This document shows positions 14,000 through 61,646 of a stretch of 64,000 nucleotides of DNA, piece by piece. The DNA is from a virus. Taxonomy: Duplodnaviria; Caudoviricetes. The DNA lies in IMG/VR virus record IMGVR_UViG_3300032007_000078, positions 4,118 to 68,117 of that record. One strand, given 5' to 3'. Position 1 is the stretch's first letter, and each line of letters starts with the position of its first letter. The notes under the pieces are model-generated. The model saw only the letters and a list, made by a program, of their open reading frames with translations, ran no database searches and had not been told where the DNA came from. Position numbers and translations under genes: made by a program.

Positions 14000-14015
14000 T
14001 TAAAGTTTGAAAACT

Positions 14016-15053
14016 ATGAATGATAAAAATAAATTAAGTGGATGGTATTATGATCTTCAAACTGACTATACTGGACCAGGAAGAATGACATGTGTAACTC
14101 TTCATCCTAGTACTAAAAAACCAAAAGATGAAAATTCTGTTAAGTGGGAAAAATATGAAGGTCCTGGTGATGGAGATGATACTTTCTATCGTAAAGAACC
14201 TGTTGCTATAGCATTGATGGGAGAAGATTTTCAAGTATCTATAGCTAACTCTTGGTCTGACTTTGGAGGAGATATGATAGGATAGATGTGGGATTCTTTA
14301 AGACCTCTAGCTCCGTATGCAGGATATGCTAAAGATATGATAGATAAAATGGTATCTAACTATAAAGAAGCAGATAGGAAAGGTCTTATAAAAGAGAATT
14401 CTCTATCTAAAGCTATAGGTGGTGCTGTAGAAAAGGTTTGGAACTATTATAATAATCATACATAGAACGGTGGAATTTAGGATTACTTAAGTATGGCACT
14501 AGTTTGTATGGGTACTAGATTTTCATACTATTCAGGTACAGGTATTAGTTTTGGGAACATGGTAATGAAATACTATGTAATGCCTAAATGGGAAAACGGA
14601 AAACTTATTACTGTTAATGAATAGCTTGAAGACTTATATCCATACATAGTTGGTCACTTAATGTTAGAAAAAGATGCAGAAGGAAATAATAAGCCAGATC
14701 AATTAATTGCATGGCAACAAGCTCCTGGTGGATTTAAATCAGACTATAGGGATATAGATACTAAACAGGAGGGTACACTATTAATGAAATTTGGTGGTCT
14801 TTACTCAGTTAATAATCTTGTGGTAGAATCCGCTAATCTAGTATTTTCTAAATAGGCAATAAAATAGCCAGTAGTATCTGAAAAATTAAAACAGGCTTAT
14901 AGCCCCTTATTTTGCGAAGTGACATTACAACTAAGACCAGCATCTAAGTTTTCAGACGATCGCTTAAAAGAGTTTGTTAATAATACTGCATCATTAGCAA
15001 CAACTCATGGAGAAATAAGTACACGAATATTAAGAAAACATGTACAAGTCTAA
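14016..15053 (+). CDS. baseplate/tail-tube cap-like protein (code 15)
   Basis: One frame through several TAGs to TAA; position after the tape measure gene. Confidence 0.55.
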
Positions 15054-15345
15054 TAAATCAGTAACAAGTGGTATATGGAATCTGATTAACTATATTGATG
15101 GAATAGATATCTATAATGCTTATTTACTTCAGGAGTTATAGAGACCTGATCTTAGTAGAGAAATTTACGAGATCAAGAATTATCAATATAGACCAGATCT
15201 AATAGCCAAAGATTTTTATGGTTCTGAAAATTATTCTGGACTAATCTTATTATAGACTGGTTTGACACTTTCTAATTTCAAGCGTGGTGTAGTATTAAGT
15301 CTTATCTCAAAGGGCGACTTAGATAATTTACTTAGAAATTTGTAA
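15040..15345 (+). CDS. baseplate wedge protein, T4 gp53-like/LysM-like (101 aa, 2 TAG; absent from the ORF track)
   Basis: YRPDLIAKDFYG hallmark motif; overlaps the upstream stop and ends 1 nt before the next ATG. Confidence 0.8.
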
Positions 15346-15346
15346 T

Positions 15347-16438
15347 ATGGATAATAAAATTTATAACTCTTCTAATGTTTCTGTAGAGTTTACACCATGG
15401 ACAGATTCTGGATATAGAATTACTTCCTTGCGTCTTACAGAAAAACTTGGTGGAACAATACCTAGAGGTGAGTTAAATTTATTATTCGTAGGTAATGAAG
15501 ATATTTCTCAAGATTTTATTAGTACTCAAAACACAGGAACCATAAAATTAGTAGATGAGAAAGATATTGAAAATAGTCTTAAGTATGAATTTGATGTATT
15601 TATAACTCATCGAAAATTTTATGGTAACTATGTTGATCTCGAATTTGTCGTAACTAAAGATGTAGAATTCTTCACTAAACGAATTTCAACCTATCATTAT
15701 AAATCAGTTACTCTTAAAGATAAAATAAAGAGTCTGTTCCCTGGTGATGTAGACTTTAGAAATACTGATCCAGATGTTCCAGATATTTCTATATATCAGA
15801 ACTGTGAAACAAATTTTGAGCTTCTTACTAGATTATGTTACTCTTATAAGAAGGATTCCATATTCTGTTTCTCTTGGGATGGGCTTATTATTAAAGATTT
15901 GGTAGGACAAAGTGATCATCTAGGAAATAAAGAACCCACTATAGAATTAGATACATACAGATTAGTTCAATAGGCTTCTCCATATGAACTGAATTATGAT
16001 AAACTACAAAATCATGAACCATTTAATCCTTGGAAAAAAGGGGATGAGAATACAATGGAGAATGATTATAGTGAGTTTAAGTCTAAATATTTTTCAGTTC
16101 AAATGGATTATCAAAAATATAATGTAGTCGAAAAAGATCATGAACCATATTTAACGAATGCATTGCTTAATACTAAAAAGATGAAATATCCAGGAAATAC
16201 TTCTCTTAAGGTAGTGTCTACAGATATTCCACACTATAAGATTGGTGATGCTCTTAAGGATGTACATGAAGCTAAGAATGTATCACTTAAGATGCCATGG
16301 AAAACTTACGTCGTTTATAGTAATGAGCTTTATTATTCGGTTGATGATAATAATAAGCTTGATGAAAATGGATTTAAATTCTCTTGGACTTCATATTTTT
16401 ACGGAATAGAAGAGAGTCCATTCAACAAACAAGCTTAA
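15347..16438 (+). CDS. baseplate hub protein (gp27/gpD-like), one TAG
   Basis: Fragments 15347 and 16055 are in frame; canonical position between gp53-like and spike genes; QNCETNFELLTRL resembles hub motifs. Confidence 0.6.
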
Positions 16439-16527
16439 ACCTAATTAACCCAGAACGTCCTTAGAGACTACCCTTTAATGTGGATTCTGGGTACAATGAA
16501 ATGATTTTAACTTAAATAGAATGAATT

Positions 16528-17322
16528 ATGAGAATAGAACATAAAATCGACGTTTACATGGGGGTTGTTACTAACGTTATAAAACAACCTTCTACTAGTC
16601 TAAAAGAGTCTGGTGATTCTTTAGAAGAGGACTTAATGAAAGAAAAAGATGCTATGGAACATGTTATTATAGCGGCTGTTCCTGGAGTTTATGAGCATCT
16701 TAGAGCTTGTCCGGAGAAAAATAGTCTTGATGAACCAAAAATTGGGGATAAGGTTATAATTTATGTCTGGGATACTGTTTATAATTCTTACAATACATAC
16801 AGAAAATTAAAAGAAAATGATATTGTAGGATTCAGGGCACATGGTAAAATGGTAGATGTACATCATGATTATATAAAGATTGGTGTATTTGATGAGACTA
16901 CAGAATATAAAGAAGATGAACGTCCTGATACTCCTATTTCTCATATTATAATGGATAAGGATGGTAATATAGATGTTCATGCTTCTTAGAAAATCAATGT
17001 AGTAGGTGATTCTGATTGTGAAGTTCATATATCAGGAAATGTTAAAGTTCAGATAGATGGAAATTCTAAAGTTACTATAAATGGAGATTCTAATGTTTCT
17101 GTAAATGGTAACCTAGATGCTAAAGTAGGTGGAAATATCAATATAGAAGGTGGATCTAATATAGATATAAAATCCTCTGGAACATTAACTACAAAAGGTC
17201 CTACATGGATAGGAAATAATGGTACGGTAGCTCCAGCGACTAAAGGCCCGTTCTGTGGTATTCCAGTTTGTCCACTTACTGGTGCTCCTCATGCTGGTAA
17301 TCAATCATCAGGAGGGAGTTAA
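16528..17322 (+). CDS. baseplate central spike (gp5/gpV-like), code 15
   Basis: After TAG 16987-16989 come 8-residue VxGxxxxx beta-helix repeats and a CPLTGAPH apex motif; N-terminal OB-like region. Confidence 0.8.
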
Positions 17323-17324
17323 TC

Positions 17325-17903
17325 ATGTCAGCTATTACAATATTAGGAAGAAAGCTCGAAAGTGAATTATATTTGGCTACAGATTCTGGATATGTTAATA
17401 ATAGAATTCTGAAATGTATAGCTGATTATATAGAGGAAGAAGTAACTTTCGATGGTATTTTTAGTGGTACCAATGATTCTACTGGTCTTCCTGCTACATT
17501 TAATTTAAGTTTCAGGATAGAGACTAGAGGACTTCGTGATGATACTGTAGTTTTTCAAGATCCTTAGGGTGGAGATGGATATGACTTTTGGATAGATTGG
17601 ATAAGTTAGATATATCAGAAAATTTCATATCATTGTGGATTAAATACATCACCCTCTAATCCTCCTAGTTTTAATGGAGATCAGTATTGTTGGCAGATGG
17701 TTAGTCCTAGCTGGGGAAGAGAAGATTTATTGAGTGCTTATAAAAGTAATATCTATGATCCTTAGGGTATTTGTTTAGATACATTAGCTCGGGGTATAAT
17801 TAAGGATATGAAAATTGACTATATACCTTCAGAGTCTGGAAAAGTAAATAATGGTAGTTATACAGGAGTTTTTAGTGTAACCTAGGTAAATGCTCCAGAG
17901 TAA
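17325..17903 (+). CDS. hypothetical baseplate-associated protein (192 aa, code 15)
   Basis: Starts 2 nt after the spike stop; reads through 4 TAG to TAA. Confidence 0.6.
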
Positions 17904-18464
17904 ATTGCTGTTTTGCGCTTCTAAGACTTTGATTGACTTATATTTGGAAAATGTAATTTCTTTCTTCATAATTTTGTTTATTTTTGTTATTGTTTTTTGT
18001 TTGTTTGTGTGAGCTAGGTTAAAGGATAGATTCGTTCTTTTCCTAGCTCCTTTTTCGAAAAGTGTCCTCGTTTCTAAACGCCAGGAAATAACTGATCCGG
18101 GAAATTTTTTCAAACAAGTTGAAAAAATTCCGTATCACAATTTCTTCGAAATTGCTCTACTTCGTAAACTGAAAGAGGGAGGGAGGGAGGAAGAAAATTA
18201 TTAGGGCGAACTATGTGAGACCTAATAATTTGATGAATCTCGACCGAACTAACATAAAGATTAGTAAGTGACTACTTTTTTAGAAAGTATATTTATTTAA
18301 GGAAATAGACTAAGTTCTCAAACAAAAGTAGTCAATTTTGCTCTTCAGAAGACTTTAATTCCTTATTTCTGAATTGATAAAATTTAGAATATCATTTCAC
18401 GAAGTGAACTGAGATTGATTTCATCAATCTCGTATTTATAGGCTAAAAATAAATATGACGAATT
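17904..18464. other. structured non-coding region upstream of helicase-like gene 1
   Basis: Inverted repeats GAGCTAGG/CCTAGCTC (18011-18049), AATTTTTTCAA/TTGAAAAAATT (about 18103-18129), AATTATTAGG/CCTAATAATT (18196-18230), TGACTACTTTT/AAAAGTAGTCA (18269-18334), GAGATTGA/TCAATCTC (18411-18431). Confidence 0.75.
18355..18366 (+). promoter_or_regulatory. candidate phage promoter motif TTAATTCCTTAT
   Basis: The WWYCCTTAT core recurs upstream of six transcription units in the orientation of the downstream gene. Confidence 0.5.
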
Positions 18465-20513
18465 ATGGTCGAAATAAAGAAGAGTAAAGATGGACTAAAA
18501 AATGTCCTTGAAGTCCCTGGAGGTTATCGTTTTATTAGTGATTGGAAAGAGTATAACTTAGAGGACTTCTGTTTTCCGCATATCTTAGATAAACAGATTC
18601 CAGGTTGCGGATATACTACATATTGTTTATGGAATCAGCAAAACTTAATTCTTGTTTCTCCTAGACGAATACTCTTAGAGAATAAGGCAGAACAAACAGA
18701 ACATGTCTTCTATTTTAAGGTTAGTTCAGCTTCCTTAGATATTGACAAGGACTTAACAAAGATAACAAAGGGTAGTGCAAAGACAAAGAGTTTAAAAACT
18801 ATTGAGAAGGAGAAAGAAGAAAGACTCAAACAGGAGAAATCAATGTTTGAGCAACTAGATCAATACATTGGGAGAAGGATTACAGAGAACAGTCCAATAA
18901 AAATTCTTGTAACTTATGATTCATTCGGAAAGGTAAGACAATTCCTAACATCTCATTATCCATTTCTTACAGGATATGGAACAGGAATGGATAAATTCCA
19001 GATTGTAGTTGATGAGTTCCAGTCGATTTTTATTGATAGCAGATTCAAGTCAGATACTGAGATGGACTTACTTAGAGACCTGTACGGGATTAAGAGAGTT
19101 TGTTTTGTTAGTGCTACTCCAATGATTGATACTTATCTTAGAGAACTTTCAGAGTTTAAAGATCTCCCGTATTATGAAATGGATTGGGCTACTTTAGATC
19201 CTGGAAGAACAAGGAAACCCGACTTAGATGTTCTTCAGATTGGAATTGGAAAATCTGTAGTGACCGAGGCTAAGAAAATTATTCAGACCTACCTAGATGG
19301 AAAGTTTGAAATTCTCCCCAGCAAAGATGGATTTCCTATTCAATCTAAGGAAGCAGTATTCTATATTAATTCTGTTAACAATATTATTGGAATTATCAGG
19401 AAATGTGGTCTTCTTCCGGATCAGGTAAATATATTATGTTCGGATACAGAGCAAAATCAAAAGAGAATCCGAAATAAACTAGGTAAAGCATTTAAGATAG
19501 GTAAAGTTCCGTTGAGGGGAGAAACCCATAAGATGTTTACTTTTTGTACTAGGACCGTATATCTAGGTGCGGATTTCTACTCGACTTGTGCTAGGACTTT
19601 TATCTTAAGTGATGCTAATATCGAATCGTTGGCAGTGGATATTAGTCTCGATCTTCCTCAGATTCTAGGACGTCAGAGATTAGATGAGAATCCTTGGAAA
19701 AATAAAGCCAGATTCTATTATCGAAAACTAAGTGAAACTAAGAAAGTAGATAAGAATTTTTTCGAAGAGGAGATTGAGAGAAAGAAGAAAGAGACAAAAA
19801 ATTTGATGGATATCTTTTATAATTGTGATGAAGATAAGAGAAAATCCTTACTAAAGAAATTTACTACAGCATCTAGGGTCATTATGTATCAGGATGATTA
19901 TGTTTCAGTCAATCCTAGAGATACTGGTCATGAGGTAGTATTTAATAACTTAGTCTTAATTTCTGAACGTCGAGCATTTGATATTCAGCAGATAGATTAT
20001 AGAGATCGTTTTACTATATTTTCTGCTCTTAAGAGTTCGGAGGATGTAGAAATTACTAAGATGTCTAGATTTATTTCTGTACTTCAAGATACTAAGATTC
20101 TATTTTCGAAGAGACTTCAGCTTTTATGTGAGAATGAATTTTACTCGGAGGAAGAGAAGAAGTATATAGCTGAGAAAGTATCAGATCGTTTCAACAAGTA
20201 CTATAATATTTTAGGTCCTGCCAGAATAAAAGCAGCCGGATATAGAACAGAAATTTTAGTAAAAGAAATTTCTAATATGCTAGTCCCAGAAGATTCAATT
20301 AAGGAGAAAATATTAAGTACCTTTGAGGTTAGTAAGAAATATAAAAGAACAGATATAAAATCTAAGTTACAGGAAATATATACTGATCTTGGATTACAGA
20401 AAATAGCAAAGTCAACGGATCTAGAAGAATATTATGAAATAAAGAAAATTAGGTTTACAGATCCGGTAACAAAAACAAGAGATAATGGTTACGAGATATT
20501 AGGAATCAAGTAA
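18465..20513 (+). CDS. SF2 helicase-like / origin-binding-protein-like protein, copy 1 (682 aa, no TAG)
   Basis: Walker-B-like VVDEFQ, motif III SATP, FCTRTVYLGADFY, degenerate Walker A PGCGYT; paralogue of 54093-56159. Confidence 0.75.
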   Translation: MVEIKKSKDGLKNVLEVPGGYRFISDWKEYNLEDFCFPHILDKQIPGCGYTTYCLWNQQNLILVSPRRILLENKAEQTEHVFYFKVSSASLDIDKDLTKITKGSAKTKSLKTIEKEKEERLKQEKSMFEQLDQYIGRRITENSPIKILVTYDSFGKVRQFLTSHYPFLTGYGTGMDKFQIVVDEFQSIFIDSRFKSDTEMDLLRDLYGIKRVCFVSATPMIDTYLRELSEFKDLPYYEMDWATLDPGRTRKPDLDVLQIGIGKSVVTEAKKIIQTYLDGKFEILPSKDGFPIQSKEAVFYINSVNNIIGIIRKCGLLPDQVNILCSDTEQNQKRIRNKLGKAFKIGKVPLRGETHKMFTFCTRTVYLGADFYSTCARTFILSDANIESLAVDISLDLPQILGRQRLDENPWKNKARFYYRKLSETKKVDKNFFEEEIERKKKETKNLMDIFYNCDEDKRKSLLKKFTTASRVIMYQDDYVSVNPRDTGHEVVFNNLVLISERRAFDIQQIDYRDRFTIFSALKSSEDVEITKMSRFISVLQDTKILFSKRLQLLCENEFYSEEEKKYIAEKVSDRFNKYYNILGPARIKAAGYRTEILVKEISNMLVPEDSIKEKILSTFEVSKKYKRTDIKSKLQEIYTDLGLQKIAKSTDLEEYYEIKKIRFTDPVTKTRDNGYEILGIK

Positions 20514-20520
20514 CGAAGTG

Positions 20521-20556
20521 AAATACTAAGAGGATGAGATATTCCTTTTAGTATTT
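20521..20556 (+). terminator. hairpin after helicase-like gene 1
   Basis: AAATACTAAGAGGA-TGAGATAT-TCCTTTTAGTATTT. Confidence 0.65.
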
Positions 20557-20561
20557 AATTT

Positions 20562-20775
20562 CCACCACACCTATTTCTCATATCAATCTAAGCGCTGATC
20601 CTATGAAAATATATCTAATTGCTTCGCGGAATTCTATTTTCAGGATTATGCGCTTAAGGATTATGAGAAGTGAGGGATTTTCCAAGATATACGCACGGAG
20701 AACAAAAATAAGATACGAGAACGCTATTTTTAAGAATTTCGTGCGTAGTGTTTAGGAAAAGTATGTAAGTGGTGG
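20562..20775. other. multibranch structured non-coding element downstream of helicase-like gene 1
   Basis: Outer stem CCACCAC/GTGGTGG encloses the nested pairs TTCTCATA/TATGAGAA and TAAGCGC/GCGCTTA, plus TACGCACG/CGTGCGTA. Confidence 0.7.
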
Positions 20776-20796
20776 TTATATAAAATATAAAAGGGG

Positions 20797-21144
20797 ATGA
20801 GCAAGAAATATTTATTGAGTACGGGTAGGGTAACTGGAATGGTAGAGTATTATATTCTTGACTTATTCCGTCTTTACCTTAGTATTTATCCTGGTGACAT
20901 TCCGGGAGCTAGTTAGATTGGATTTGACTTTACAATTACTGATACATTCAAAGCAAATCTAGAAGATACAGTAAAAAGTAGAGTTGATTCATTAGTTAAG
21001 AAAATATCAGATCAATTTTCTCCTAGTCTTAAAATTAATCTAGAGAGTTGTGATTTGATAGATGATAAGTACGCCAAAGTTGTAGTATCTTGTAATGGTG
21101 TACGTGGAGAAGAGATAACAATAAATCTCTATAACGATTATTAA
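20797..21144 (+). CDS. baseplate wedge protein, gp25-like (115 aa, 1 TAG; absent from the ORF track)
   Basis: YPGDIPGASQIGFDF resembles the gp25 motif; size and position before the gp6-like gene fit. Confidence 0.65.
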
Positions 21145-21164
21145 TAATTTGGCTTTTACATATT

Positions 21165-22682
21165 ATGAAGAGTAAACAGAATTATATTGATATTTACCGT
21201 GGAATAACTAATGGTCTAAATATAACTGGTGAGGGAGCTGAGTTATTAATACAGTTATTAGCGGAAGCGACATATATAAGTGAAGTTGAGTAGGTTACAA
21301 TATCTTAGGAATCTAGTCTTGAGAAATGTACTTTAATGAACTCTAAGATTCAGCACTGTATGAATGATATGTATAGTGTTTATCGTGGAAATTGTCCTCG
21401 TGTTATTCTTAGATTTCGTCCTACCAGTTATTTTGATCTTAAGCCATTCGATACTATAGCTGTCGGAAATAATTATAAGGTTTATTATCTTGGTTACTGG
21501 ACGGGATCGGAAGGTGGAGAATCTAAGAGTTCAGAGACGGATTATATACCTTTGATGGATGGTTTTGTATATGGTCCTAAGATAATACCTCCTTCGATAA
21601 GTGGTTCCGAGTCTGAGGTATATACGATAATAGGAATTCTAGCTCAGACAGAATATCGTCAAACTTTCAAGACAGATTTTTAGAATACTTATTATGTAGA
21701 GTGTACTGAAGAAGACCTAAGTTGTGATATGTGGGTAAAGATAGAAGACCAGTATGTTTCGGTGACTCGTATTTTTGCTGATCACGTAATGAATCGTTCT
21801 GTCTTCGATATGACAATTCCTTCTTTTGGTTCACGTCTTTATCTTGCCGATATCTTAAGAACAGGAAAGGTAAGTAGAGATAGTGTGATAAGCTAGGAGA
21901 ATGTTAATGTAGAAGCTTGTTGGTATAAATATAGTTATCTTAGTTCTTATCCTGAAAATGAGTTACGTAGAATTAACATAAAAGGTGCAGTATTAGTTCC
22001 TTTCGAAGATAATATGTTCCATGGTATTCAGGAGTTGACTACAGGAGTTGTAACTATTGAGGAGAGTTCAAGGGATACTATTTCAACAATACACTACAAA
22101 GCAAATCGAGATAGATATGTAAATAGTATTATTCGCACAAACAGTGATATAGGTAACATTCTTGAGGAAACATATCCAGAAAACATCAAGATTGGTGGAA
22201 CAAGTTATAAATTTAATTCATCTATAACTGGATCTAGCTTAGTATTATATTATGTTCCTCAAGATATAAATAATCTCTTAACATCAGACTAGGTAGAAGA
22301 TTTTAGACAAACAAAATCTGGATATTATATAACTGATAATATTACTATACTACCTGGAACAAAATATACTGCTGTTTTCAACTTAGATGTTATACTTTAT
22401 CAATCAGGCTCTATAGATTCTGAAGTATCTGACATTCTATTATAGTATGAAGATAAATTTAATATAGATTTCAGATCTTTAGGGGGTGAAATTTAGAGCT
22501 TAGTTAGTAAGATATCTAATGTAAAGGAGATATCTAGTTTCAGTATAGATTATATTTCTGATAATGGGATTATAAAATCTCAAGAGGAACTAGATGATAT
22601 GTATGATAACCTATATATGTCATACTATAAAGTTAATTATGTAATTAATAGTAGTATAGTTCAATCTACTGGAAAATTTTAA
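21165..22682 (+). CDS. baseplate wedge protein, gp6/baseplate J-like (505 aa, code 15)
   Basis: Fragments 21336 and 22014 are in frame; QESSLEKCTLMNSKIQHC resembles the gp6 N-terminal pattern. Confidence 0.7.
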
Positions 22683-22685
22683 ATT

Positions 22686-23219
22686 ATGAATATATACATT
22701 CCACCTCATCTCAGGAAAATTGGAATCCTGAAGAATTTATGTGACATTATTACAGAGTATTCTAAGAATTACGTAAATACAGGTTCGTCTTTTGATGATT
22801 ACCAGACTTACCTAAAGATTGATCCAGTTCTGAGATTTATATCTTTATGTATTCCTGAAAGTGGGGTGGAACAAGATTATAAAACCTCCTTAAACTATCT
22901 CACTCATCTGTTCTATAGTGTCAAAGGTACTACTAAGGTATTTGATTATATGAAAAATTTCCTTGGCTTAGAGTTTGAAGGAGATATTGTATATACTTCA
23001 AAGAATCTTAGTTTCTCATTATCCGGTATTAAGGGATCGGATGCATCGTTATTTAATAATTATCTTAAAGATTTCTTAGATTCTTTGTTATACTTTGAGA
23101 CTATAGATTATAAACTTTCTGAAATTTCGATAATCATAGAATCAGATACAGAAGTTTTTACTAACAGTGATATTATAACATATAAACGTTTTAAAGACAT
23201 TACGATTTATGAGAGTTAA
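22686..23219 (+). CDS. baseplate protein (gp7/P2 gpI-like)
   Basis: YSVKGTTKVFDYMKNFLG resembles the gpI-type KGT motif; follows the gp6-like gene. Confidence 0.55.
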   Translation: MNIYIPPHLRKIGILKNLCDIITEYSKNYVNTGSSFDDYQTYLKIDPVLRFISLCIPESGVEQDYKTSLNYLTHLFYSVKGTTKVFDYMKNFLGLEFEGDIVYTSKNLSFSLSGIKGSDASLFNNYLKDFLDSLLYFETIDYKLSEISIIIESDTEVFTNSDIITYKRFKDITIYES

Positions 23220-25017
23220 TATAATAAATGAAGAGTTTTCAGATCTTACTACAGCTATTCTTAGTGATGGGAGTTAGATCTACAAGGCTTCTACATCTTG
23301 GTTACCTTCCGGAGATTTTATTCAGACGGGATTTGATTGGTTTCCAGATAAGATTAAGTTTACTGACTCTCTTAAGATATCTGATTTAGACTTAGAGAGT
23401 TCGGAACTTATAGGAAATGAATTACCAGACCTAGAGAGAACAGAACTTACTTTATTTCCTACATTATCGAGTGAATCTGGAAATAATAATAAATTCTTTG
23501 GTTCTTTCTTAGATCAATCATTAGAGACTTTTGGATTTAGTTTCGGAAGTGGTATAGAGTGGGCCAAGATATATGAAGATTCTGGGGATGAGGAATATTC
23601 TATAATGATTTAGTTTGATGATTCTGAGATAGATTCTGAAAAATTAGTATTTATTATAGTTTCATCTATCGAATCTTAGTCTGTAAAAATAAGCTATAAT
23701 CTTTGGTTGTCAGATAATAATGGTAACTATAAGATGAAGGATCTAGTATTACGAAATGATGACTTCAGAGAAAAAGTTCCTCTTACTATAGATGATGAGA
23801 TGACTAATTTCTCTTTCTCTAGTATATCAGGATCTTTGGTTGGGACAAAAAATATAACAGATCATCCTATTTTTGATAATAGAAATAAACTTAAGAAAGA
23901 AAAAAATATTTGGTGTCCTACTAGGGTTTATGGTTTAGGAGAGAAAGTAAAATTAGGTAAAGATCAGAAAGTTTATGAATCTATTTTATCTAGAAATCTT
24001 GGTAATCATCCCTGTACTTCTGGAGCATGGATAGAGAGTGGATTTATTGAGAGATGTCTAAATAGAACTGCTCAGGTTGTTGTAGATTATAAGACGAATC
24101 CTGGTACGATAAGTCCATATGGTATTATCAACTATCCATATAATATAACAGATTCTAGTGTTCTTTTCTCTAAGACATTTGATTATACAGAGAGTACAGG
24201 TTATTAGCTTAAGGGTGTCTCGATAGATGGTGAACACTTAGTTGGTCCAGAGGGCTACTATATAAATACAACTTCGAATAAGATAGTTGTAAATAAACCT
24301 GTCTTTACTTCAATAATTAATTCTGGTTATCTATATTTCTTATTCTCTAAGATAATTGGAAAGATAAAATTATTTGCTATCGAGACAGGAGAAGATACAA
24401 GTTATATTGAGATAGAGAACTTATTAGAAAGAAGTGATTGGAAAAATATAATAACAGATCCTTACACTTTAGTTCAAGATATTAGGTATACTACCGGAGA
24501 ACCAATTAGTATAGAAGAAGCTTTTGATACAGAAACAGAAACTGGAATAGAGCTTGGAAAGTCTATAGAGCTAAAGGAAAAATACGTAGGAGAAGAAGAA
24601 CTTAAGTTATCTAGAATCTTAGTAAAGTATTCTGAGGATAAGACATAGAAAGTTAGAGAAATAACTGACTACTATACTGAGGAAGATAGTATAATAAAAT
24701 TAATAGATAGTTTTGAATATACTACAGAAACAGATGGTAGTGAAGTTTTATATCCTCAGTACTATTTCTACTATGATCCTATGACTTATAAGATCTTAGT
24801 TTATCCTGGTTATGGTATAGAGGTTTCTGTTGATTCTGTAACTGTTAATTCTGGATCTTCATTTGATCTATATTTCTACACAACAGTATCAGGAGAACCA
24901 GTTATAGAAATAGATGGAGGATCGTATTAGATTTCTGAGATATCTTCTGGGAATTACAAAATAAGTTTAGAAAATATTAGAAGTAATATAGGAGTAACTA
25001 TTTATGTTAATCAATAA
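23209..25017 (+). CDS. hypothetical virion protein (602 aa, code 15)
   Basis: One frame through TAGs, overlapping both neighbours. Confidence 0.65.
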
Positions 25018-26131
25018 TAAACACGTACAAGGAATTTTTCTATATACGGAAAATTCTAGTTAGGTTGAGTTTGAGAAGAATGATTTTGTAGTTTCCGGAG
25101 ATTGTATTTACTTATGTACTGCGGAGAATCCAACAAATAAGGTCAATAATACTGTTTCAGGTATTGATCCCGCCGATGATCTTAGATATGAAAATTTTAA
25201 ACCATATCCTGGAGAAAGAGCAATTACAGCTGAAGAATATTTCAAGGCTATAAGTAGTGGATCTGATGTAGAGGATAAGTATATTTCTAGTCAAGCACTT
25301 CTAGGAATTCTTCAGAGATATAATTTTGGATTATCTATGACGGGAATTATAAAAGACTACATAAAAGAAGGAGAGACAAGTTTAGTTTTAGGCTATGATA
25401 CTTCTTCTCCATTAGATGACCTTATTCTGACAAAGGATTTAAATAATGGTGTAGTTTATGTAGATCCCGCCTTAGAGCAAATACAAAATGGAGTAACCTA
25501 CAACGGAAGTAAATTTTCTGTATTATTTGGATTCTCTGAAAATACAAGAGTAAAGGATTCAGAATATAATTTAATTCTCAGACAATATACTTATTAGGCC
25601 ACAGATACAATAAAAACAAGAGTACAAGAGTTAGTAAATCCTTTTGATGCTGTTGTTGTATTTAGATATATCACATGGGAAAACGATGATTTTCCTGGAG
25701 ATATATCATCTATTAGTGGTTGGAAAAGTTCTTATTCATATTCTAAAGCAATCAAAGATAAAATAAATACCTTAGAGTTATTTTATCAAGATTCTCAAAA
25801 TCAATGGGAATCTAAGTTTAATACTCTAGCCGGTATGTTTAGATTTAAGAAAGAGATAGTTATAGATGAGACTTATTCAGATTTAGAGGAAGGAATTTAT
25901 ACTGTATCTGTTTCTAAGACAGAGAATAACGGTATGATTTGCACAGATACTATTACTGTTTAGATTAATCCTTCTATAACTGGTCAGAAGTATTGTATAT
26001 CATCATTTGGTCCCTCTTATTATGTAGAGATTGAGGCATTAGGTACTTAGGGTTTAGCTAGACTTAAGGTAGGGAGGGACTCAATGTTGTTTAAGATAGT
26101 AGAAGTATACGGGAGAAAAGAATATGAGTAA
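25004..26131 (+). CDS. hypothetical virion protein (375 aa, code 15)
   Basis: One frame through TAGs, overlapping both neighbours. Confidence 0.65.
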
Positions 26132-53129: not shown

Positions 53130-54092
53130 CCTCAAAACTTTATATATGGAGGAGGATAGGCCAATAATGAAAGATAGTATTTTATAAATAATATTGATGT
53201 TTTGCGGATATCTTAGAGTAGGAAAATAATATGTTAAATTAAAGATTATTATTTTTAGATATTAACCGAAAAGAAAAAGATATCCGATCGTACTAGTTTC
53301 TTAGATACATATCCTCCCAATCCTTAGTGAATCCCCCAACTTCAACGTAGTACTGAGGTCTAGAGCACTAAAGATGTGACTAATCGGGGGCTGAAAAATT
53401 TGATGGGTTAGTAGTTGATGGGAATTATAACCCTGAGAATGAACAACATCTTAAAGTATTGGTATGTCAGGAAGAACCGGATTTATCTAGTTCCTCTCTG
53501 ATGAATTTTTTTTTTGCTCCCACGTTTTAGGTCCCCTTCATAGCGCAGAAGTGAAAACGCCAAGCAGTTAGGAGTTTCCCAGGTTATCCTCTTTTAAGCT
53601 AGGTTTCTGTATATTCTGGAGCGAGACTTGCGAGCGACGAATATAGAAGGGGAATAGCTTAGGTACCGGACATGAACCGACCCCGACCTTACGTTCCTTT
53701 GTCACTCCAGGTCGGGTTCCCTTGTTCTTTCTTGGACAGAAAGAACAAGATACTATAAGTTTTTTAATATTATTTGCCGACGCGAAGCGATCGGCAACAT
53801 ATTATATTTTCCTTGATACCTTAATTTCTGGAGATATATCCTGAGGCTCGGCCGAAGGGATATCGGAAGAAATACTGAGATGAAGTCGGAACTGAGTTTC
53901 ACGAGGTTTCGGCTTTATCGATAGTCAAAGTTTCATTTATTTTTTCCCAAAATTTCTATCAGAATACTTATATTAGGTATATCGATTCTGTTATGTTCAA
54001 ATTGGGAAAATGCTCCTAACTGCACCTGAAACCCTTATCCATGAAATGAACGAGAAAAGGAAACTCGAAACTAACTTAAAATTATTAATATT
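53130..54092. other. about 1-kb structured divergent intergenic region upstream of helicase-like gene 2
   Basis: CTTGTTCTTTCT-TGGAC-AGAAAGAACAAG (53721-53749), TGCCGA-CGCGAAGCG-A-TCGGCA (53775-53796), ATGAAGTCGGAAC/GTTTCGGCTTTAT (53880-53918, 3 G-T pairs), TTCCCAA/TTGGGAA. Confidence 0.75.
54026..54038 (+). promoter_or_regulatory. candidate promoter motif CTGAAACCCTTAT
   Basis: Near-identical to CTGAAATCCTTAT at 61647-61659 (minus strand). Confidence 0.5.
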
Positions 54093-56159
54093 ATGGATAA
54101 GAAAAGATTAGAAATACCTGCTGGAGTTAGGTATATAACAGAATGGGATGGATATAATTTGAATGATTATGCCTTCCCTCATATTTTGAATAAAGTACTT
54201 ACGGGATGTGGATTTACAGAATATTGCTTAAGGAATCAACAGAACATAATTCTCCTAAGCCCTCGTAAGTTCCTCTTAGAAAATAAAGAGGATCAGCATA
54301 AAGAAGATGTACTTTATGTTAAGAATGAATTTGGTGCTATCGTAGATTATGAACGAAATATAAGTGATAGCAGAAAGAAAGGCAAACAGAAAGAGCCGCC
54401 TAAACTTTCAGATGAAGAAATAAAATCCGGTATCTCTAAGATGAAAGGAGATATTCGAGATTATTGTAGGAAGAGATTTTCGGAGGGACGTAAACCTTGT
54501 AAAATCCTGGTAACATATGATTCATTCCGTCACGTCAAGGAAACTTTGCAGGAGATGGGAATTTTTCAGGGATTTCAGGTTGTAGTTGATGAGTTCCAGT
54601 CGATTTTCATAGATTCACGCTTCAAGAGTTCAACGGAGATGGAGCTACTTTACTATCTTAGAGACGTACAGAAGTTATGTTTCGTTTCAGCTACTCCTAT
54701 GTTAGATAAGTACCTAGAAATGTTGGATGAATTTAAAAATCTTCCTTACCTTGAATTTGACTGGATAACAAAAGATCCTGGGAGAGTAAAGAGACCACAA
54801 TTAGAGATTAAGTTTACAAAACGATCTCTTAATGAGGAAGCAGGTCAAGTTATTCAGAACTATAAGAAGGGTAATTTTGAACAGCGCTTAGATTCAGGAA
54901 CAGGAGGTATTATAGAATCTCATGAAGCTGTAATTTTCATGAATTCTGTATCTAATATTTGTCAGGTCATCCGTTCAAATAACTTACATGTTGAAGAGTG
55001 TAATGTACTTTGTGCTCGGACGGAAGAAAACAGCAAAGAGGTAAAGAAAGCATTTAATGAAGTCTTACGAAGAGAAAGTGAGGGATTTGAAAAACCGTTA
55101 AGTCTTCCGAGAGGTTATGATGTTATCGGTAGAATCCCAGGAAGAGGCGAAAAGCATAAGATGTTTACTTTCTGCACTCGAACTGTATATCTCGGAGCGG
55201 ATTTCTATAGTACGAATGCAAGAACCTTTATATTCAGTGATGCTAATATAGAGTGCTTAGCTGTAGATATTGGGATAGATCTGGAGCAAATATTAGGTAG
55301 ACAAAGACTAGATGAGAACCCTTGGAAGAACTCGGCTAACTTATATGTGAAAACTCTGACAGGAAAGAATTCATTTACCAAGGAAGAGTTTGATAATATA
55401 CTAGCCGAAAAAATAAAGAGTACTCAAAATCTCTTGAATGTTTATGAAAAGGGATCTCTAGAAGAAAAGGCAGATTTAGCAAAGAATTATGAGTTTGTAG
55501 CTAAGCATAATTATTACAAGGATGATTATGTTTCTGTCAATCATCACGCAGGAAAGAGTCTTAAACCTGTCTTCAATAATCTAGTTCTTGTATCGGAGAT
55601 GAGAACGTTCGAAGTACAACAGATTGATTATAAGGATAGATTTTCTGTATTTTCAACTTTGCGAGATGAAGGTATGAACTATGAAGATAATAATATTTCT
55701 CAGGTAGTAGAACAATTTAATGAAGTTAAGACAACAACAGAGAAACTTAAATTTTTGGTTAAGTATACTACAGAAACATCAGGAGTAACTGAAAGAGATA
55801 TTAAGACTTTTATTTCAATGATTCCTGGTAAGTATGGAGATTATTATTATCTATTAGGTCCGGACAGAATCAAAGCAAACAGTTATCACGAATCAGAACT
55901 AAGAAAAGAGTGGATAAAAATGCATTCGGAGGTAAAGGTAGAGGATGAAATGATATCAGAAATTTATAGTACTTTTAGTGTATCGAAGAAGTATGGTAAA
56001 TCTGAAATAAAACAAATCCTAAAAGAAATTTATGGGAGATATAATTTTGAAAGAACAGCGAAAGCTTCGGACTTATCAGAATATTTTATTATAAAAGGAA
56101 TTAAACTTTTAGATTCAGGTAAGTGGATCCATGGATTCGAAATATTAGGAAAAAGATAA
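54093..56159 (+). CDS. SF2 helicase-like / origin-binding-protein-like protein, copy 2 (688 aa, no TAG)
   Basis: TGCGFT, VVDEFQSIFIDSRFKS, SATP, MFTFCTRTVYLGADFYS shared with 18465-20513. Confidence 0.75.
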   Translation: MDKKRLEIPAGVRYITEWDGYNLNDYAFPHILNKVLTGCGFTEYCLRNQQNIILLSPRKFLLENKEDQHKEDVLYVKNEFGAIVDYERNISDSRKKGKQKEPPKLSDEEIKSGISKMKGDIRDYCRKRFSEGRKPCKILVTYDSFRHVKETLQEMGIFQGFQVVVDEFQSIFIDSRFKSSTEMELLYYLRDVQKLCFVSATPMLDKYLEMLDEFKNLPYLEFDWITKDPGRVKRPQLEIKFTKRSLNEEAGQVIQNYKKGNFEQRLDSGTGGIIESHEAVIFMNSVSNICQVIRSNNLHVEECNVLCARTEENSKEVKKAFNEVLRRESEGFEKPLSLPRGYDVIGRIPGRGEKHKMFTFCTRTVYLGADFYSTNARTFIFSDANIECLAVDIGIDLEQILGRQRLDENPWKNSANLYVKTLTGKNSFTKEEFDNILAEKIKSTQNLLNVYEKGSLEEKADLAKNYEFVAKHNYYKDDYVSVNHHAGKSLKPVFNNLVLVSEMRTFEVQQIDYKDRFSVFSTLRDEGMNYEDNNISQVVEQFNEVKTTTEKLKFLVKYTTETSGVTERDIKTFISMIPGKYGDYYYLLGPDRIKANSYHESELRKEWIKMHSEVKVEDEMISEIYSTFSVSKKYGKSEIKQILKEIYGRYNFERTAKASDLSEYFIIKGIKLLDSGKWIHGFEILGKR

Positions 56160-56161
56160 AT

Positions 56162-56193
56162 GAAAGTAAAGGATGAAATACTCCTTTACTTTC
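56162..56193 (+). terminator. hairpin after helicase-like gene 2
   Basis: GAAAGTAAAGGA-TGAAATAC-TCCTTTACTTTC; loop nearly identical to the hairpin after copy 1. Confidence 0.65.
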
Positions 56194-56214
56194 TCTAATT
56201 TTAATTTTTGTATT

Positions 56215-57240
56215 ATGGTGTATATAATTTAGACTGCTCAATATGATAAAGAGCATAATTTGTGTGAAGTTATTAAGATAGGTTATACTTAGAATTGGGA
56301 AAAGAGATTAAGTACTTATGAGTGTTATTGTCACCACTTAATTGTACTTAAAATTTATGATGAAGGGACTTTAGAGGATGAAACCAAACTTAAGAAATAT
56401 TTCAAAGATAAGGTAGTTTATAAGGATGAGTGGATAAGTTATACAGAAGATATACTAAAGTTTTTCAAAGAGAATGATACATTAGAAAAACTCAGAGAAT
56501 CATTGAAAGAAATAAATCCAATTTAGCCATCAAAATATATAAGAAAACAATAGGTAAATAGATTTCTTGTGGAGTATATTTATAATAATTTTTGCGACCC
56601 TATTTCTGATCTTTTAGAAAGAGTTAATAAAAAGAAAGAAATAGAAAAAGAGTTATATTTAATACCAGAAAGTAAACATATTAGTTATGTCAGCAATAAG
56701 TATTCAATACCAGCTGAAGAAATAACATCAGGTATTAATTTATTAATGAATAATTTTATAAAAACTACAGATAAAGTATATATTGCAATAAAAGAGTTTA
56801 ATAGTTTAAGTTCAGTTAAAGAAAAATTTAAATATTTAGTTATGCTTGATAGTAAGATAGAAAATATAACCGAAGAGGATATTAATAACTTTCTAGCCCA
56901 AATTCCTTCAAAATACGAGGATTATTATCGTTTACTAGGACCTGAAAGAATAAAGGCTAATAGTTTTCAAGAATCTAGAATTAAGAGTGAGTGGTTAAAA
57001 ATTCATTCCGGAGTAGATGTAGATAATGGAATGATATCTAAGATTTATGAGACATTCAAGGTAGGAGAAAAATATGGTAAATCCTCTATTAAATCTACCC
57101 TAAAAGAAATTTATCTGAACTATAATTACAATAAAACGGCTAAAGCTTCAGATCTTCAAGAATATTTTGTACTTAAGTCGACTAGAGCATTAGAAGAAGG
57201 TGTCTGGGTAAATGGTTTTGAAATTCTCGGAAAACGGTAA
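56215..57240 (+). CDS. GIY-YIG/T5orf172-like nuclease fused to the helicase-like proteins' C-terminal domain (341 aa, 4 TAG)
   Basis: MVYIIQ...IKIGYTQNWEKRL...E..LKKYF...EW appears only if TAGs 56230, 56290, 56524 and 56551 are read through; C-terminus GPERIKANS...TAKASDL.EYF...GFEILGKR matches copy 2. Confidence 0.75.
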
Positions 57241-61295: not shown

Positions 61296-61646
61296 TTTCC
61301 TTTTTGTTTCTTATAAACATAAAATTGTATCTCATTTTGTGTCAAACCATTTTTACTTTCCGCTCCCAGCCTATAATTAGTGACATCGCTGGCTGAATTA
61401 ACAACACTTCAGCAATTTATGAGTTTCACTATCCACCCATAAATTTCTCTAATCCTATATCATTTTAAAGTCGCCGGGACGACTATCGGTAACATTACTT
61501 CCGATACTTCGGTAATACACTTCCAATATAGCACCTCCTCGAAATGTATTACTTAAGTCAGGTTCCTATAAGGTTCCTGACATGTTGAAAAAATCAAACT
61601 CCCAAAGAATATTTCATCTTTAGGAGTTGTTATTTTTATCTCATAT

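Follow-up and report, generated by a model that had tools for sequence, protein, structure and literature searches.

In archaeal chromosomes with multiple origins of replication, an Orc1/Cdc6 or WhiP gene lies beside each origin. Pairs of helicase and nuclease genes, on the other hand, are common in defence systems. Replication genes of recoded phages keep the standard code (Borges et al., 10.1101/2021.08.26.457843). ICP1 encodes Odn (Gp88), a T5orf172 nuclease that carries the DNA-binding domain of a replication initiator and cuts the origin (PMC8263062). T5orf172 genes of ICP1 phages are also reported to be homing endonucleases located at exchange boundaries (PMC10448857; PMC8263062). Here, a stretch of 64,000 nt (the window; positions 4,118 to 68,117 of IMG/VR record IMGVR_UViG_3300032007_000078) was analyzed for a unit that shares traits with several of these systems. 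The sequence fits a separately transcribed, long-resident helicase-like gene (copy 1) at the tail-hub/baseplate border of a rumen giant phage. We tentatively interpret the unit as an early, standard-code DNA-transaction module of the origin/initiator type, long resident and not a transposon, and hold this with somewhat less than even confidence. The features are listed in Table 1.

Table 1. Features of the helicase-like unit and of its paralogue, in window coordinates.
Feature	Position	Strand	Basis or remark
Distal non-coding part: T-rich tract, four local hairpins, GGGAGGGAGGGAGG run	17904..18334	+	no ORF in either code
Distal look-alike of the promoter-like motif, TTTTGC-N-TTTGA-N-CTTAT	17909..17948	+	regex; direct repeat
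Promoter/operator-like motif, ATTTTGC-N12-TTTAA-NN-CCTTAT-NNN-TGA	18335..18376	+	~130 nt before ATG; PWM
5' leader hairpin (GAGATTGAT/ATCAATCTC)	18410..18432	+	inverted repeat; terminator/hairpin scan
Helicase-like gene, 682 aa, TAG-free (copy 1)	18465..20513	+	open under table 11
C-terminal domain, residues 525-682: helical bundle and winged helix	20037..20510	+	alignment; AF2 pLDDT 93
Post-stop hairpin, core AGGATGAGATATTCCTT	20515..20562	+	20-bp A+T-rich stem, then TTTAATTT
215-nt element of two long, irregular hairpins; closing stem CCACCAC/GTGGTGG	20562..20775	+	folding z-score
Promoter-like motif variant upstream of paralogue	54009..54041	+	regex match
Paralogue, 688 aa, TAG-free (copy 2)	54093..56159	+	44% identity to copy 1, 35 kb away
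Paralogue post-stop hairpin, core AGGATGAAATACTCCTT	56163..56193	+	just after the stop codon
T5orf172/MUG113 (GIY-YIG clan) nuclease-like gene, 4 TAG	56173..57240	+	Pfam; real start may be 56215

The genes flanking copy 1 require translation of TAG as glutamine, whereas the reading frame of copy 1 does not. Late genes between 14007 and 26131 contain 32 in-frame TAG codons per 3042 aligned codons, against zero in the 1366 codons of the two helicase-like copies combined (Poisson probability of zero: copy 1, 7.7e-4; both copies, 5.7e-7). This bears out an earlier note on this DNA, which had pointed to a TAG-free gene of 682 codons amid TAG-dependent neighbours. TAG is entirely unused in relatives, which indicates that the helicase-like gene retained the ancestral code while its neighbours switched. 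A gene without amber codons amid recoded late genes would carry a natural timing label, as it is readable before the code switch, and this label makes the hypothesis testable in metatranscriptomes. No tRNA or tmRNA was found in the window. The nearest protein relative of copy 1 (92% identity) is encoded on a contig of 156,891 nt; beyond it, scans of viral and metagenome sequences gave no match above ~51% identity.

Searches of Pfam, PHROG, NCBIfam and PADLOC with the 682-aa protein yielded no match, Pfam hits up to an E-value of 1 were noise only, and the PDB sequence search returned nothing. While sequence profiles are silent, the label helicase-like is supported by the predicted fold. The AlphaFold (AF2) model (pLDDT 80) shows two tandem RecA-like domains that form an SF2 core. 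In VIA-align comparisons this core matched eIF4A (Z 19.0, rmsd 3.9, 317 residues aligned), Prp2 (Z 18.8) and DbpA (Z 18.4). Foldseek related the model to Brr2, BLM and WRN (E ~1e-8) and, among viral models, to herpes UL9 and giant-virus proteins named 'replication origin-binding protein' (E 1e-11 to 1e-8). Motif I reads PGCGYT in copy 1 and PGCG[YF]T across the aligned family members and thus departs from the Walker A consensus GxGK[ST], as Tyr or Phe replaces the lysine; G47, C48, G49 and T51 are invariant in the alignment, and so is K43 upstream of the motif. SF2 motifs II (DEFQ; D183, E184, Q186), III (SAT; S216, A217, T218) and VI (GRQR; G402, R403, Q404, R405), which were located by eye rather than by structural superposition, likewise fall on invariant columns. 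In total, more than 100 columns are invariant among 28 family sequences aligned at ~48% identity, and in distant relatives the helicase-like protein is better conserved than the gp6-like protein. The best fold matches of the C-terminal domain are both weak (RFX DNA-binding domain, Z 6.7; P4 origin-binding domain, Z 4.6), and all structural matches of the winged helix lie below Z 8. The proteins make up a large phage-only family of more than 5300 clusters, for which Pfam has neither a name nor a model, and their P-loop is unusual in having no canonical lysine. In Acinetobacter phage Phab24, the gene for a distant homologue follows ~930 nt of non-coding DNA and is the first of its operon.

With eIF4A, Prp2 and DbpA, the core is matched best by DEAD/DEAH RNA helicases in RNA-bound form. 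They would suit an RNA helicase or RNA-binding protein that acts with, or is autoregulated by, the upstream structured RNA, either as a long leader or as a small RNA that starts at the distal motif, in early RNA metabolism or gene expression. We consider such a role unlikely. RNA and DNA helicases of SF2 have similar Z-scores, so that the core fold favours neither, and the winged helix of the tail, which recurs in a nuclease-family protein, points to DNA.

The structured regions around the gene bear on the same question. The upstream non-coding region comprises 561 nt and contains 16 inverted-repeat pairs. The inverted repeats noted earlier over about 560 nt are thus present, but the region folds just moderately better than shuffled sequences (z -3.1 on the + strand, -3.7 on the - strand). 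A T-rich tract occupies 17970-18012, and no 8-10-nt word occurs three times in the flanks. The proposed promoter-like motif of copy 1 was confirmed and is deeply conserved in the family. It is the sole PWM match in the window (37 bits), is visible by eye in orthologues and is family-specific: of 106 + strand matches in related loci that total 1.68 Mb, 89 lie 100-200 nt upstream of the ATG of a family member. The distal look-alike, which scores under the PWM threshold, lies 426 nt upstream of this copy and could be the source of the small RNA in the RNA-centred reading. A leader hairpin is found at an equal position in relatives, with a different sequence. Upstream of family genes in two related clades, stems covary and include G-U pairs on the sense strand of the gene. 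As these stems are RNA-like, they also fit an RNA-centred role. However, the upstream elements differ among clades and none of them has an Rfam match. A covariance model of the relatives' element scored 5.8 bits in the window (E 0.17 over 1.4 kb, not significant) and had no significant match outside one clade.

Downstream, the hairpin core AGGATGARATAYTCCTT is found exactly at 20531 and 56170, immediately after the stop codon of either copy, as the earlier note had stated. A terminator scan that needs at least three G-C pairs leaves the hairpin at 20515-20562 uncalled. An 88-codon ORF (20534-20800) for which no homologue was found overlaps it. The multibranch structure of about 215 nt that had been described behind the hairpin was recovered with a z-score of -7.0 on the + strand and -6.1 on the - strand. 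Its better folding on the + strand (-72.5 against -60.8 kcal/mol) and its 10 G-U pairs out of 77 are again compatible with a function as RNA. The same applies to RNA-library contigs, a weak line of evidence, which match the distal non-coding part exactly and in one case continue through the hairpin into the 215-nt element. In X3 RNA-library contigs the nominal depth over the unit exceeds that over the flanking late genes and X17 contigs cover the gene only, but libraries seen as Logan contigs are silent on transcription, strand, starts and levels. The 215-nt element has no Rfam match, and blastn against the copies and ~160 related loci revealed no counterpart. It is particular to this lineage, and the corresponding sites of relatives hold a gene or almost nothing. 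The segment 20514-20796 was also considered as a relic of a nuclease gene; tblastn with eight partner proteins matched the helicase tail alone.

The earlier note had described the unit as interrupting the baseplate operon. This is overstated, as the junction recurs in relatives: at least 17 related contigs have a family member between the same tail-hub and gp25-like genes, and the members from the six nearest contigs join copy 1 in one clade (support 0.99). In terms of annotation, the helicase-like unit is no insertion that disrupts baseplate genes. The gp25 and gp6 labels of the flanking genes found no support in PHROG, Pfam or PDB sequence searches, and the tail-hub gene alone among the labelled neighbours had profile support. 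The comparison for an empty site, which the note had advised, did reveal one among the many occupied slots, in relative G002, whose gp6-like protein is 50% identical. Distant slot copies cluster in the tree with paralogues from their own genome. Paralogues also cluster by genome lineage: all seven G002 copies group together (support 1.0), and so do 13 ODJE-type copies (support 1.0). The empty slot and the polyphyly of distant slot copies show that the units do turn over. The note had named a fixed locus with vertical phylogeny and no conserved pairing in the flanks as evidence against its proposals. The first part agrees with the kept junction and the orthology of the near clade, but not with the empty slot and the polyphyletic distant copies, and the covarying upstream pairing in two clades departs from the last part.

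These data largely refute one of the two origins proposed in the note, an undescribed and recently mobile cassette made of a helicase-like protein and folded ends that excises from or copies into the baseplate operon, and we regard it as highly improbable. Its foreign-looking code usage, its own promoter and terminator-like hairpin, the structured flanks and the second copy within the window had made it attractive. However, expression timing accounts for the difference in code, and relatives are not recoded. Besides the occupied slots and the orthology within the near clade, blastn detected no flank sequence shared between copy 1, copy 2 and ~160 related loci, and the structured element at the 3' side is unique to the lineage. 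Within one genome, DNA homology between paralogues starts ~130-400 nt upstream and stops at the stop codon, so that a 3' end element is lacking. The repeats around copy 1 are local hairpins and terminal repeats were not found. We agree with the note that target-site duplications, a transposase and an integrase are absent, as no Pfam or PHROG recombinase was matched and the helicase-like gene is the only ORF in the unit. A group I or II intron with an internal ORF was rejected too: there was no Rfam match at gathering threshold or at E-values up to 10, and each flanking gene is a complete ORF with a start and a stop codon of its own rather than part of a split gene.

Long non-coding upstream gaps are a family-wide feature, and the number and placement of the copies are informative as well. 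Two near-complete genomes, on which the spacing statistics rest, contain seven evenly spaced copies in 367 kb (p = 4e-4) and six in 305 kb (p = 6e-3). Paralogous units in phage genomes of 300-400 kb are separated by ~35-90 kb. In the 367-kb genome all seven copies lie behind gaps that rank among the 35 longest of 451 (p ~1e-8). Even spacing argues for selection on position and is hard to account for with an RNA factor. The upstream gaps are no AT-richer than other gaps. GC skew, which had been suggested as an origin check, follows gene orientation only and is uninformative for this reason.

The window contains a full-length paralogue of copy 1 as described in the note, but its setting is not similar: it lies in a divergent accessory region, is followed by a nuclease gene and falls outside the copy 1 clade. 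The nuclease-like gene matches MUG113 (PF13455; 26.8 bits, cut-off 22.3) and T5orf172 (PF10544; 21.7 bits, cut-off 20) and ends in the same C-terminal domain as the helicase-like proteins. This tail shares 55% identity with the tail of the adjacent paralogue and at most 40% with other family tails. Seven of 10 genes downstream of family members in relatives also match T5orf172-type Pfam models, and in six of 12 loci the own partner is the best match of the nuclease tail. The shared tail domain implies that the nucleases should aim at the same sites as the helicase-like proteins. A T5orf172 gene is often found behind family members, is absent after copy 1 and many other units, and varies in presence among orthologous slots.

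Such a distribution could also result from a selfish, recombination-driven family, whose units spread and replace each other by duplication and gene conversion with the aid of a T5orf172 homing-type nuclease. The helicase-like gene would then be host, cargo or inter-phage weapon, and copy 1 would have lost its nuclease. Multiple copies that group by genome lineage, the empty slot in G002, the mutually closest tails of many partners and the ICP1 homing endonucleases mentioned above are in line with this. So is one DNA run in which contigs of the late-gene flanks match the window at 99.4-99.5% identity, those of the helicase gene at only 93-95%, and none was placed on the upstream region. The strong constraint on the protein, which exceeds that on the gp6-like protein in distant relatives, the conserved promoter motif, the even spacing, the orthology of copy 1 across its clade and the lack of terminal repeats or target duplications speak against this scenario, and we consider it improbable. 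A phage-borne helicase-nuclease pair for defence or counter-defence, such as superinfection exclusion or anti-host immunity, would agree with the typical pairing of these genes in defence systems, with presumed early expression and with a partner nuclease that carries the same targeting domain. It is very unlikely, since PADLOC matches neither protein, many units, including copy 1, have no nuclease, and six to seven evenly spaced copies per genome are unlike known defence loci.

A duplicated origin or origin-binding module, the other proposal of the earlier note, is the best-fitting reading and gained support from the SF2 core with its winged helix, the even spacing, the long gaps and the standard code; origin activity itself is putative. 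Under this origin/initiator reading, the family-specific promoter/operator ~130 nt upstream would drive a standard-code mRNA with a hairpin-bearing leader that ends near the post-stop hairpin. In the predicted product, a helical linker would join an SF2 motor with a rewired P-loop to a winged helix at the C-terminus, which most likely recognizes a particular nucleic-acid site. Produced early, from codons that the host can read, the protein would bind near its own gene via the winged helix and open or remodel the local DNA, possibly aided by transcription of the structured upstream region. Several paralogous units would be kept at regular intervals, each downstream of a structured non-coding gap that ranks among the longest. 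Many would be followed by a T5orf172 gene, which at copy 1 appears to be replaced by the folded 215-nt spacer. Some observations do not favour this reading. There are no iteron-like repeated words, and neither GC skew nor the AT content of the gaps is remarkable. The P-loop lysine is missing, so that ATPase activity is putative, and the best core matches among solved structures are RNA helicases. In addition, the structured elements of relatives are not detectable in the window and the 215-nt element has no counterpart. More generally, it is conceivable, although doubtful, that giant gut and rumen phages possess several evenly spaced origins, each specified by a neighbouring initiator paralogue (SF2 core and winged helix, expressed early) together with a structured region that is transcribed, and that T5orf172 nucleases have repeatedly captured the recognition domain of the initiators to target these origins. 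If true, no layout with multiple origins and multiple initiators would have been described in a phage before.

Compared to described systems, copy 1 resembles the standard-code early genes of recoded phages (10.1101/2021.08.26.457843) in that it is free of the reassigned stop and has standard-code close relatives, but it sits within a late structural block and not in a replication module. Free-standing homing endonucleases (T4 seg/mob; ICP1 T5orf172, PMC10448857) have their own promoters and are intergenic and patchy like the T5orf172 partner genes. The helicase-like gene, in contrast, has no nuclease domain, is strongly conserved, orthologous within its clade and evenly spaced. Herpesvirus UL9 and giant-virus origin-binding proteins (PF02399) likewise combine an SF2 core of two RecA domains with a C-terminal sequence-reading domain and a long non-coding neighbour. 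Copy 1 differs from them in the absence of a Pfam match to PF02399 or any helicase family, in the replaced Walker A lysine, in a tail that is a small winged helix instead of the UL9 C-terminal domain, and in the presence of several diverged copies per genome. UL9-type origin binding and ATP-driven unwinding by the helicase-like protein are putative, based on architecture and fold matches. The archaeal multi-origin chromosomes offer a possible analogy, as dispersed winged-helix initiator paralogues lie by their own non-coding region and are spaced around the replicon, as proposed here; with AAA+ proteins there and SF2 proteins here, it is architectural only. In the system of ICP1 Odn and PLE RepA (PMC8263062), cleavage and iterons are described, the two genes do not lie side by side in one phage, and the shared domain is RepA_N, whereas here it is a C-terminal winged helix and copy 1 has no nuclease partner. 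In both systems a T5orf172 nuclease shares its recognition domain, there with a replication initiator, at whose origin it is thereby aimed, and here with an adjacent helicase-like gene. The tail domain common to helicase-like and T5orf172 genes would thus represent the second case, after ICP1 Odn, of a borrowed initiator-type recognition domain.

The record behind the window is 68 kb long and 18% complete by CheckV estimate, so the full genome is probably near 380 kb; DNA and RNA runs containing the window sequence derive from gut samples of bovine, goat and sheep origin. Under translation table 11 the genes of the region are fragmented, and reading TAG as glutamine gives long abutting ORFs. 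The helicase-like gene under study (copy 1; 18465-20513, 682 aa) is open without this reading. The late genes at 14007-26131 contain 32 in-frame TAG per 3042 aligned codons, whereas copy 1 and its paralogue (54093-56159, 35.6 kb away) contain none in 1366 codons (Poisson P 5.7e-7 for both, 7.7e-4 for copy 1 alone). The earlier note was thus right about a TAG-free gene amid TAG-dependent neighbours and about a second full-length copy. The same late genes have no in-frame TAG in six contigs sharing the gene order (L085, L086, L091, L107, L108 and L113), whose gp6-like proteins are 55-61% identical to that of the window. This indicates that the phage is a recoded branch within a standard-code group and that TAG-to-Gln recoding is confined to its branch. 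To judge by these sequences, copy 1 has retained the ancestral, host-readable code and the neighbouring genes have drifted. Replication genes of recoded phages show the same standard-code pattern, which was read as expression early, ahead of the code switch (10.1101/2021.08.26.457843). We put the code contrast down to expression timing, not to foreign origin; the copy 1 unit would be expressed early.

The copy 1 protein matched none of the Pfam, PHROG, NCBIfam and PADLOC models, and its family comprises more than 5300 clusters in a large protein collection, all of them lacking both a Pfam domain and an informative name. The label 'helicase-like' is supported by an AlphaFold model (28 family members as input, pLDDT 80), which predicts a two-RecA SF2 core resembling eIF4A and Prp2 in VIA-align (Z 19.0 and 18.8) and Brr2, BLM and WRN in Foldseek (E ~1e-8). 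Foldseek matches among viral models include 'replication origin-binding proteins' of giant viruses and herpesvirus. Motifs II (DEFQ), III (SAT) and VI (GRQR) are invariant in the family; motif I (PGCG[YF]T) lacks the canonical lysine, and position 43 is an invariant lysine. Residues 525-682 (pLDDT 93) are modelled as a helical bundle and a winged helix, for which the best solved match is the RFX DNA-binding domain (Z 6.7, weak), with lower-ranking weak matches to the P4 origin-binding domain and Cdc6/Orc1 winged helices. This tail would confer site-specific binding. Cultured Acinetobacter phage Phab24 (L084, MZ477002.1, 40139-42004) encodes one distant homologue, annotated as hypothetical (24% identity across 98% of the query); it directly follows a ~930-nt non-coding divergent region and could serve as a tractable model for the family.

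The upstream flank had been described as structured. Inverted repeats and hairpins do occur throughout 17904-18464, which contains no ORF, but the region folds only moderately better than shuffled sequences (z -3.1 and -3.7). The promoter-like motif proposed for the gene is specific to family starts: a weight matrix gave 106 plus-strand matches in 1.68 Mb of related loci, 89 of them 100-200 nt 5' of a family start, and the sole match within the window is the one before copy 1. As the matrix was trained on the same kind of site, the weight of this result rests on specificity, not on presence. The motif is kept upstream of family members in phages with a gp6-like identity of just 31-60%. A purine run, GGGAGGGAGGGAGGAAGAAAA, is located on the sense strand at 18176-18198, ~250 nt 3' of the distal promoter-like motif, and RNA-library contigs break over it (18166-18202). 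Throughout the family the gene nearly always lies behind a long stretch of non-coding DNA, typically 420-1290 nt, and in the near-complete relative genome G002 all seven such gaps rank within the 35 longest of 451. Upstream gaps are not AT-richer than other gaps, and the window's flanks contain no iteron-like words.

Conserved pairing of the upstream flank was found in relatives. In the nearest of them, an 84-nt three-way junction 5' of the gene comprises 23 pairs, seven with double (compensatory) changes among four sequences; it has no Rfam match and is preceded by a second CCTTAT-type promoter-like box. A larger, different element in a clade of 370-kb phages comprises 28 pairs, six with double changes, and several of its pairs alternate between G-U and C-G on the sense strand of the gene; 5' of it lies an additional, obviously covarying hairpin. 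Compensatory changes therefore occur in two related clades, but matches to the covariance model of the 84-nt junction are confined to the nearest-relative clade, with none in the window.

Downstream, the hairpin core AGGATGARATAYTCCTT recurs exactly behind the paralogue's stop, as had been noted. A third near-match, with two mismatches, lies in the minus-strand accessory region (61604-61620, minus strand). The multibranch structure described next to the hairpin was also confirmed: this 215-nt element consists of two long irregular hairpins with the closing stem CCACCAC/GTGGTGG (77 pairs, 10 of them G-U) and folds well beyond shuffles (z -7.0 on the plus strand, -6.1 on the minus strand). It matched no Rfam family, and a comparison that took in copy 2 as well as some 160 related loci revealed no copy elsewhere. 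A relic of a nuclease gene as its source was rejected by comparison with the nuclease-like partner proteins encoded 3' of some family members. As a guess, the element may be an RNA-level spacer, e.g. a processing site that separates the late operon from the early unit. An RNA-centred role of the whole unit is one of two main rivals to the origin/initiator-type module that we tentatively favour, and is itself unlikely.

Positions of features in the window and in related loci (L-numbers)
Feature	Position	Remarks
Post-stop hairpin of copy 1	20515-20562	20-bp stem, A+T-rich
Promoter-like motif	18335 (matrix match)	ATTTTGC-N12-TTTAA-NN-CCTTAT-NNN-TGA, 40 nt; ~130 nt before copy 1 ATG
Look-alike of promoter-like motif	17909-17948	426 nt farther upstream
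84-nt three-way junction	L086:3772-3855; L113:2636-2720; L091:2358-2442; L085:4563-4645; L107:2641-2725	
Larger structured element, 370-kb clade	L011:5590-5850	Equivalents in L017, L029, L038, L047, L050, L057, L059
Nuclease-like gene 3' of paralogue	56173-57240	4 TAG; N-terminal T5orf172/MUG113 domain, GIY-YIG clan

The mobile cassette with folded ends suggested in the earlier note was not borne out. The two copies and about 160 related loci have no flank sequence in common, and in one 375-kb genome DNA homology between paralogues begins ~130-400 nt upstream and ends at the stop codon, indicating a duplicated unit made up of leader and gene and lacking a 3' end. A transposon-like cassette is largely excluded. 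The slot of copy 1, between the tail-hub gene and the gp25-like/gp6-like pair, holds a family member in at least 17 related contigs, and two trees group copy 1 with the six nearest slot copies (support 0.99), separate from the window's paralogue. This indicates long residence with vertical descent for copy 1. Fixation at the locus does not extend to all relatives, however. G002 (367 kb; gp6-like 50% identical) has just ~0.8 kb from hub to gp25-like with no helicase-like gene between, and L089 is arranged similarly. Two further clades are made up of slot copies from more distant phages; one of them is nested among paralogues from the same genomes. The seven G002 copies likewise form a single clade (support 1.0). 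Empty slots and within-genome clustering indicate that the slot itself is maintained, whereas the gene in it undergoes loss, regain or homogenisation by recombination. A recombination-driven selfish family is the other main rival, and no more probable than an RNA-centred role. The stretch separating the gene from gp25-like varies among loci, both in length (80 nt to 1.9 kb) and in content: it harbors the nuclease gene or a small ORF, and in the case of the window the folded element. In DNA run X4 (window 16203-23000) late-gene contigs on either side are 99.4-99.5% identical to the window, those across the helicase-like gene and the 215-nt element 93-95%, and 17937-18470 is uncovered at 88% likeness. 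This drop suggests an exchange island with bounds near 17.9 and 20.74 kb; a metagenome strain mixture is the alternative.

Counting copies gave evenly spaced paralogues. G002 (the record behind L024; loci L170-L188) has copies at 21.7, 75.3, 132.0, 199.7, 240.6, 295.5 and 351.0 kb with a smallest gap of 38-41 kb (simulated p = 4e-4 for a minimum that large), and G003 (305 kb) has six, none closer together than 35 kb (p = 6e-3). The strand order in G002 is strictly - + - + - + -, for six of the seven copies a divergent strand switch is at most ~6 kb away, and the genome's mosaic of strand blocks could have been shaped by inversion between copies of opposite orientation. GC skew, suggested as a test for an origin, tracks the strand of the genes and shows no signal of an origin. 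We take as established the SF2 fold with winged-helix tail, the standard code in a recoded late block, the private promoter-like motif, the long structured upstream regions, the even spacing, the long residence of copy 1 and the tail common to T5orf172 genes; the units would have a positional DNA function.

The nuclease-like gene 3' of the paralogue ends in the same tail domain as the helicase-like proteins. Its listed ATG lies in the loop of the hairpin that follows the paralogue's stop, and the copy 1 hairpin has an ATG at the equivalent place (20534); since the T5orf172 match starts only at residue 15, 56215 may be the true start. In related loci the nuclease-like gene often lies 2 nt behind the helicase-like gene, or the stops overlap, and 7 of 10 tested downstream genes carry a T5orf172-type Pfam domain. 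The nuclease tail is closest to that of the adjacent helicase-like gene in 6 of 12 non-redundant loci (mean identity 58% to the neighbour, 42% for other pairs). In ICP1 Odn a T5orf172 domain is fused to a copy of a replication initiator's DNA-binding domain, and the protein cuts that initiator's origin (PMC8263062). We take Odn as a precedent for the domain sharing seen here.
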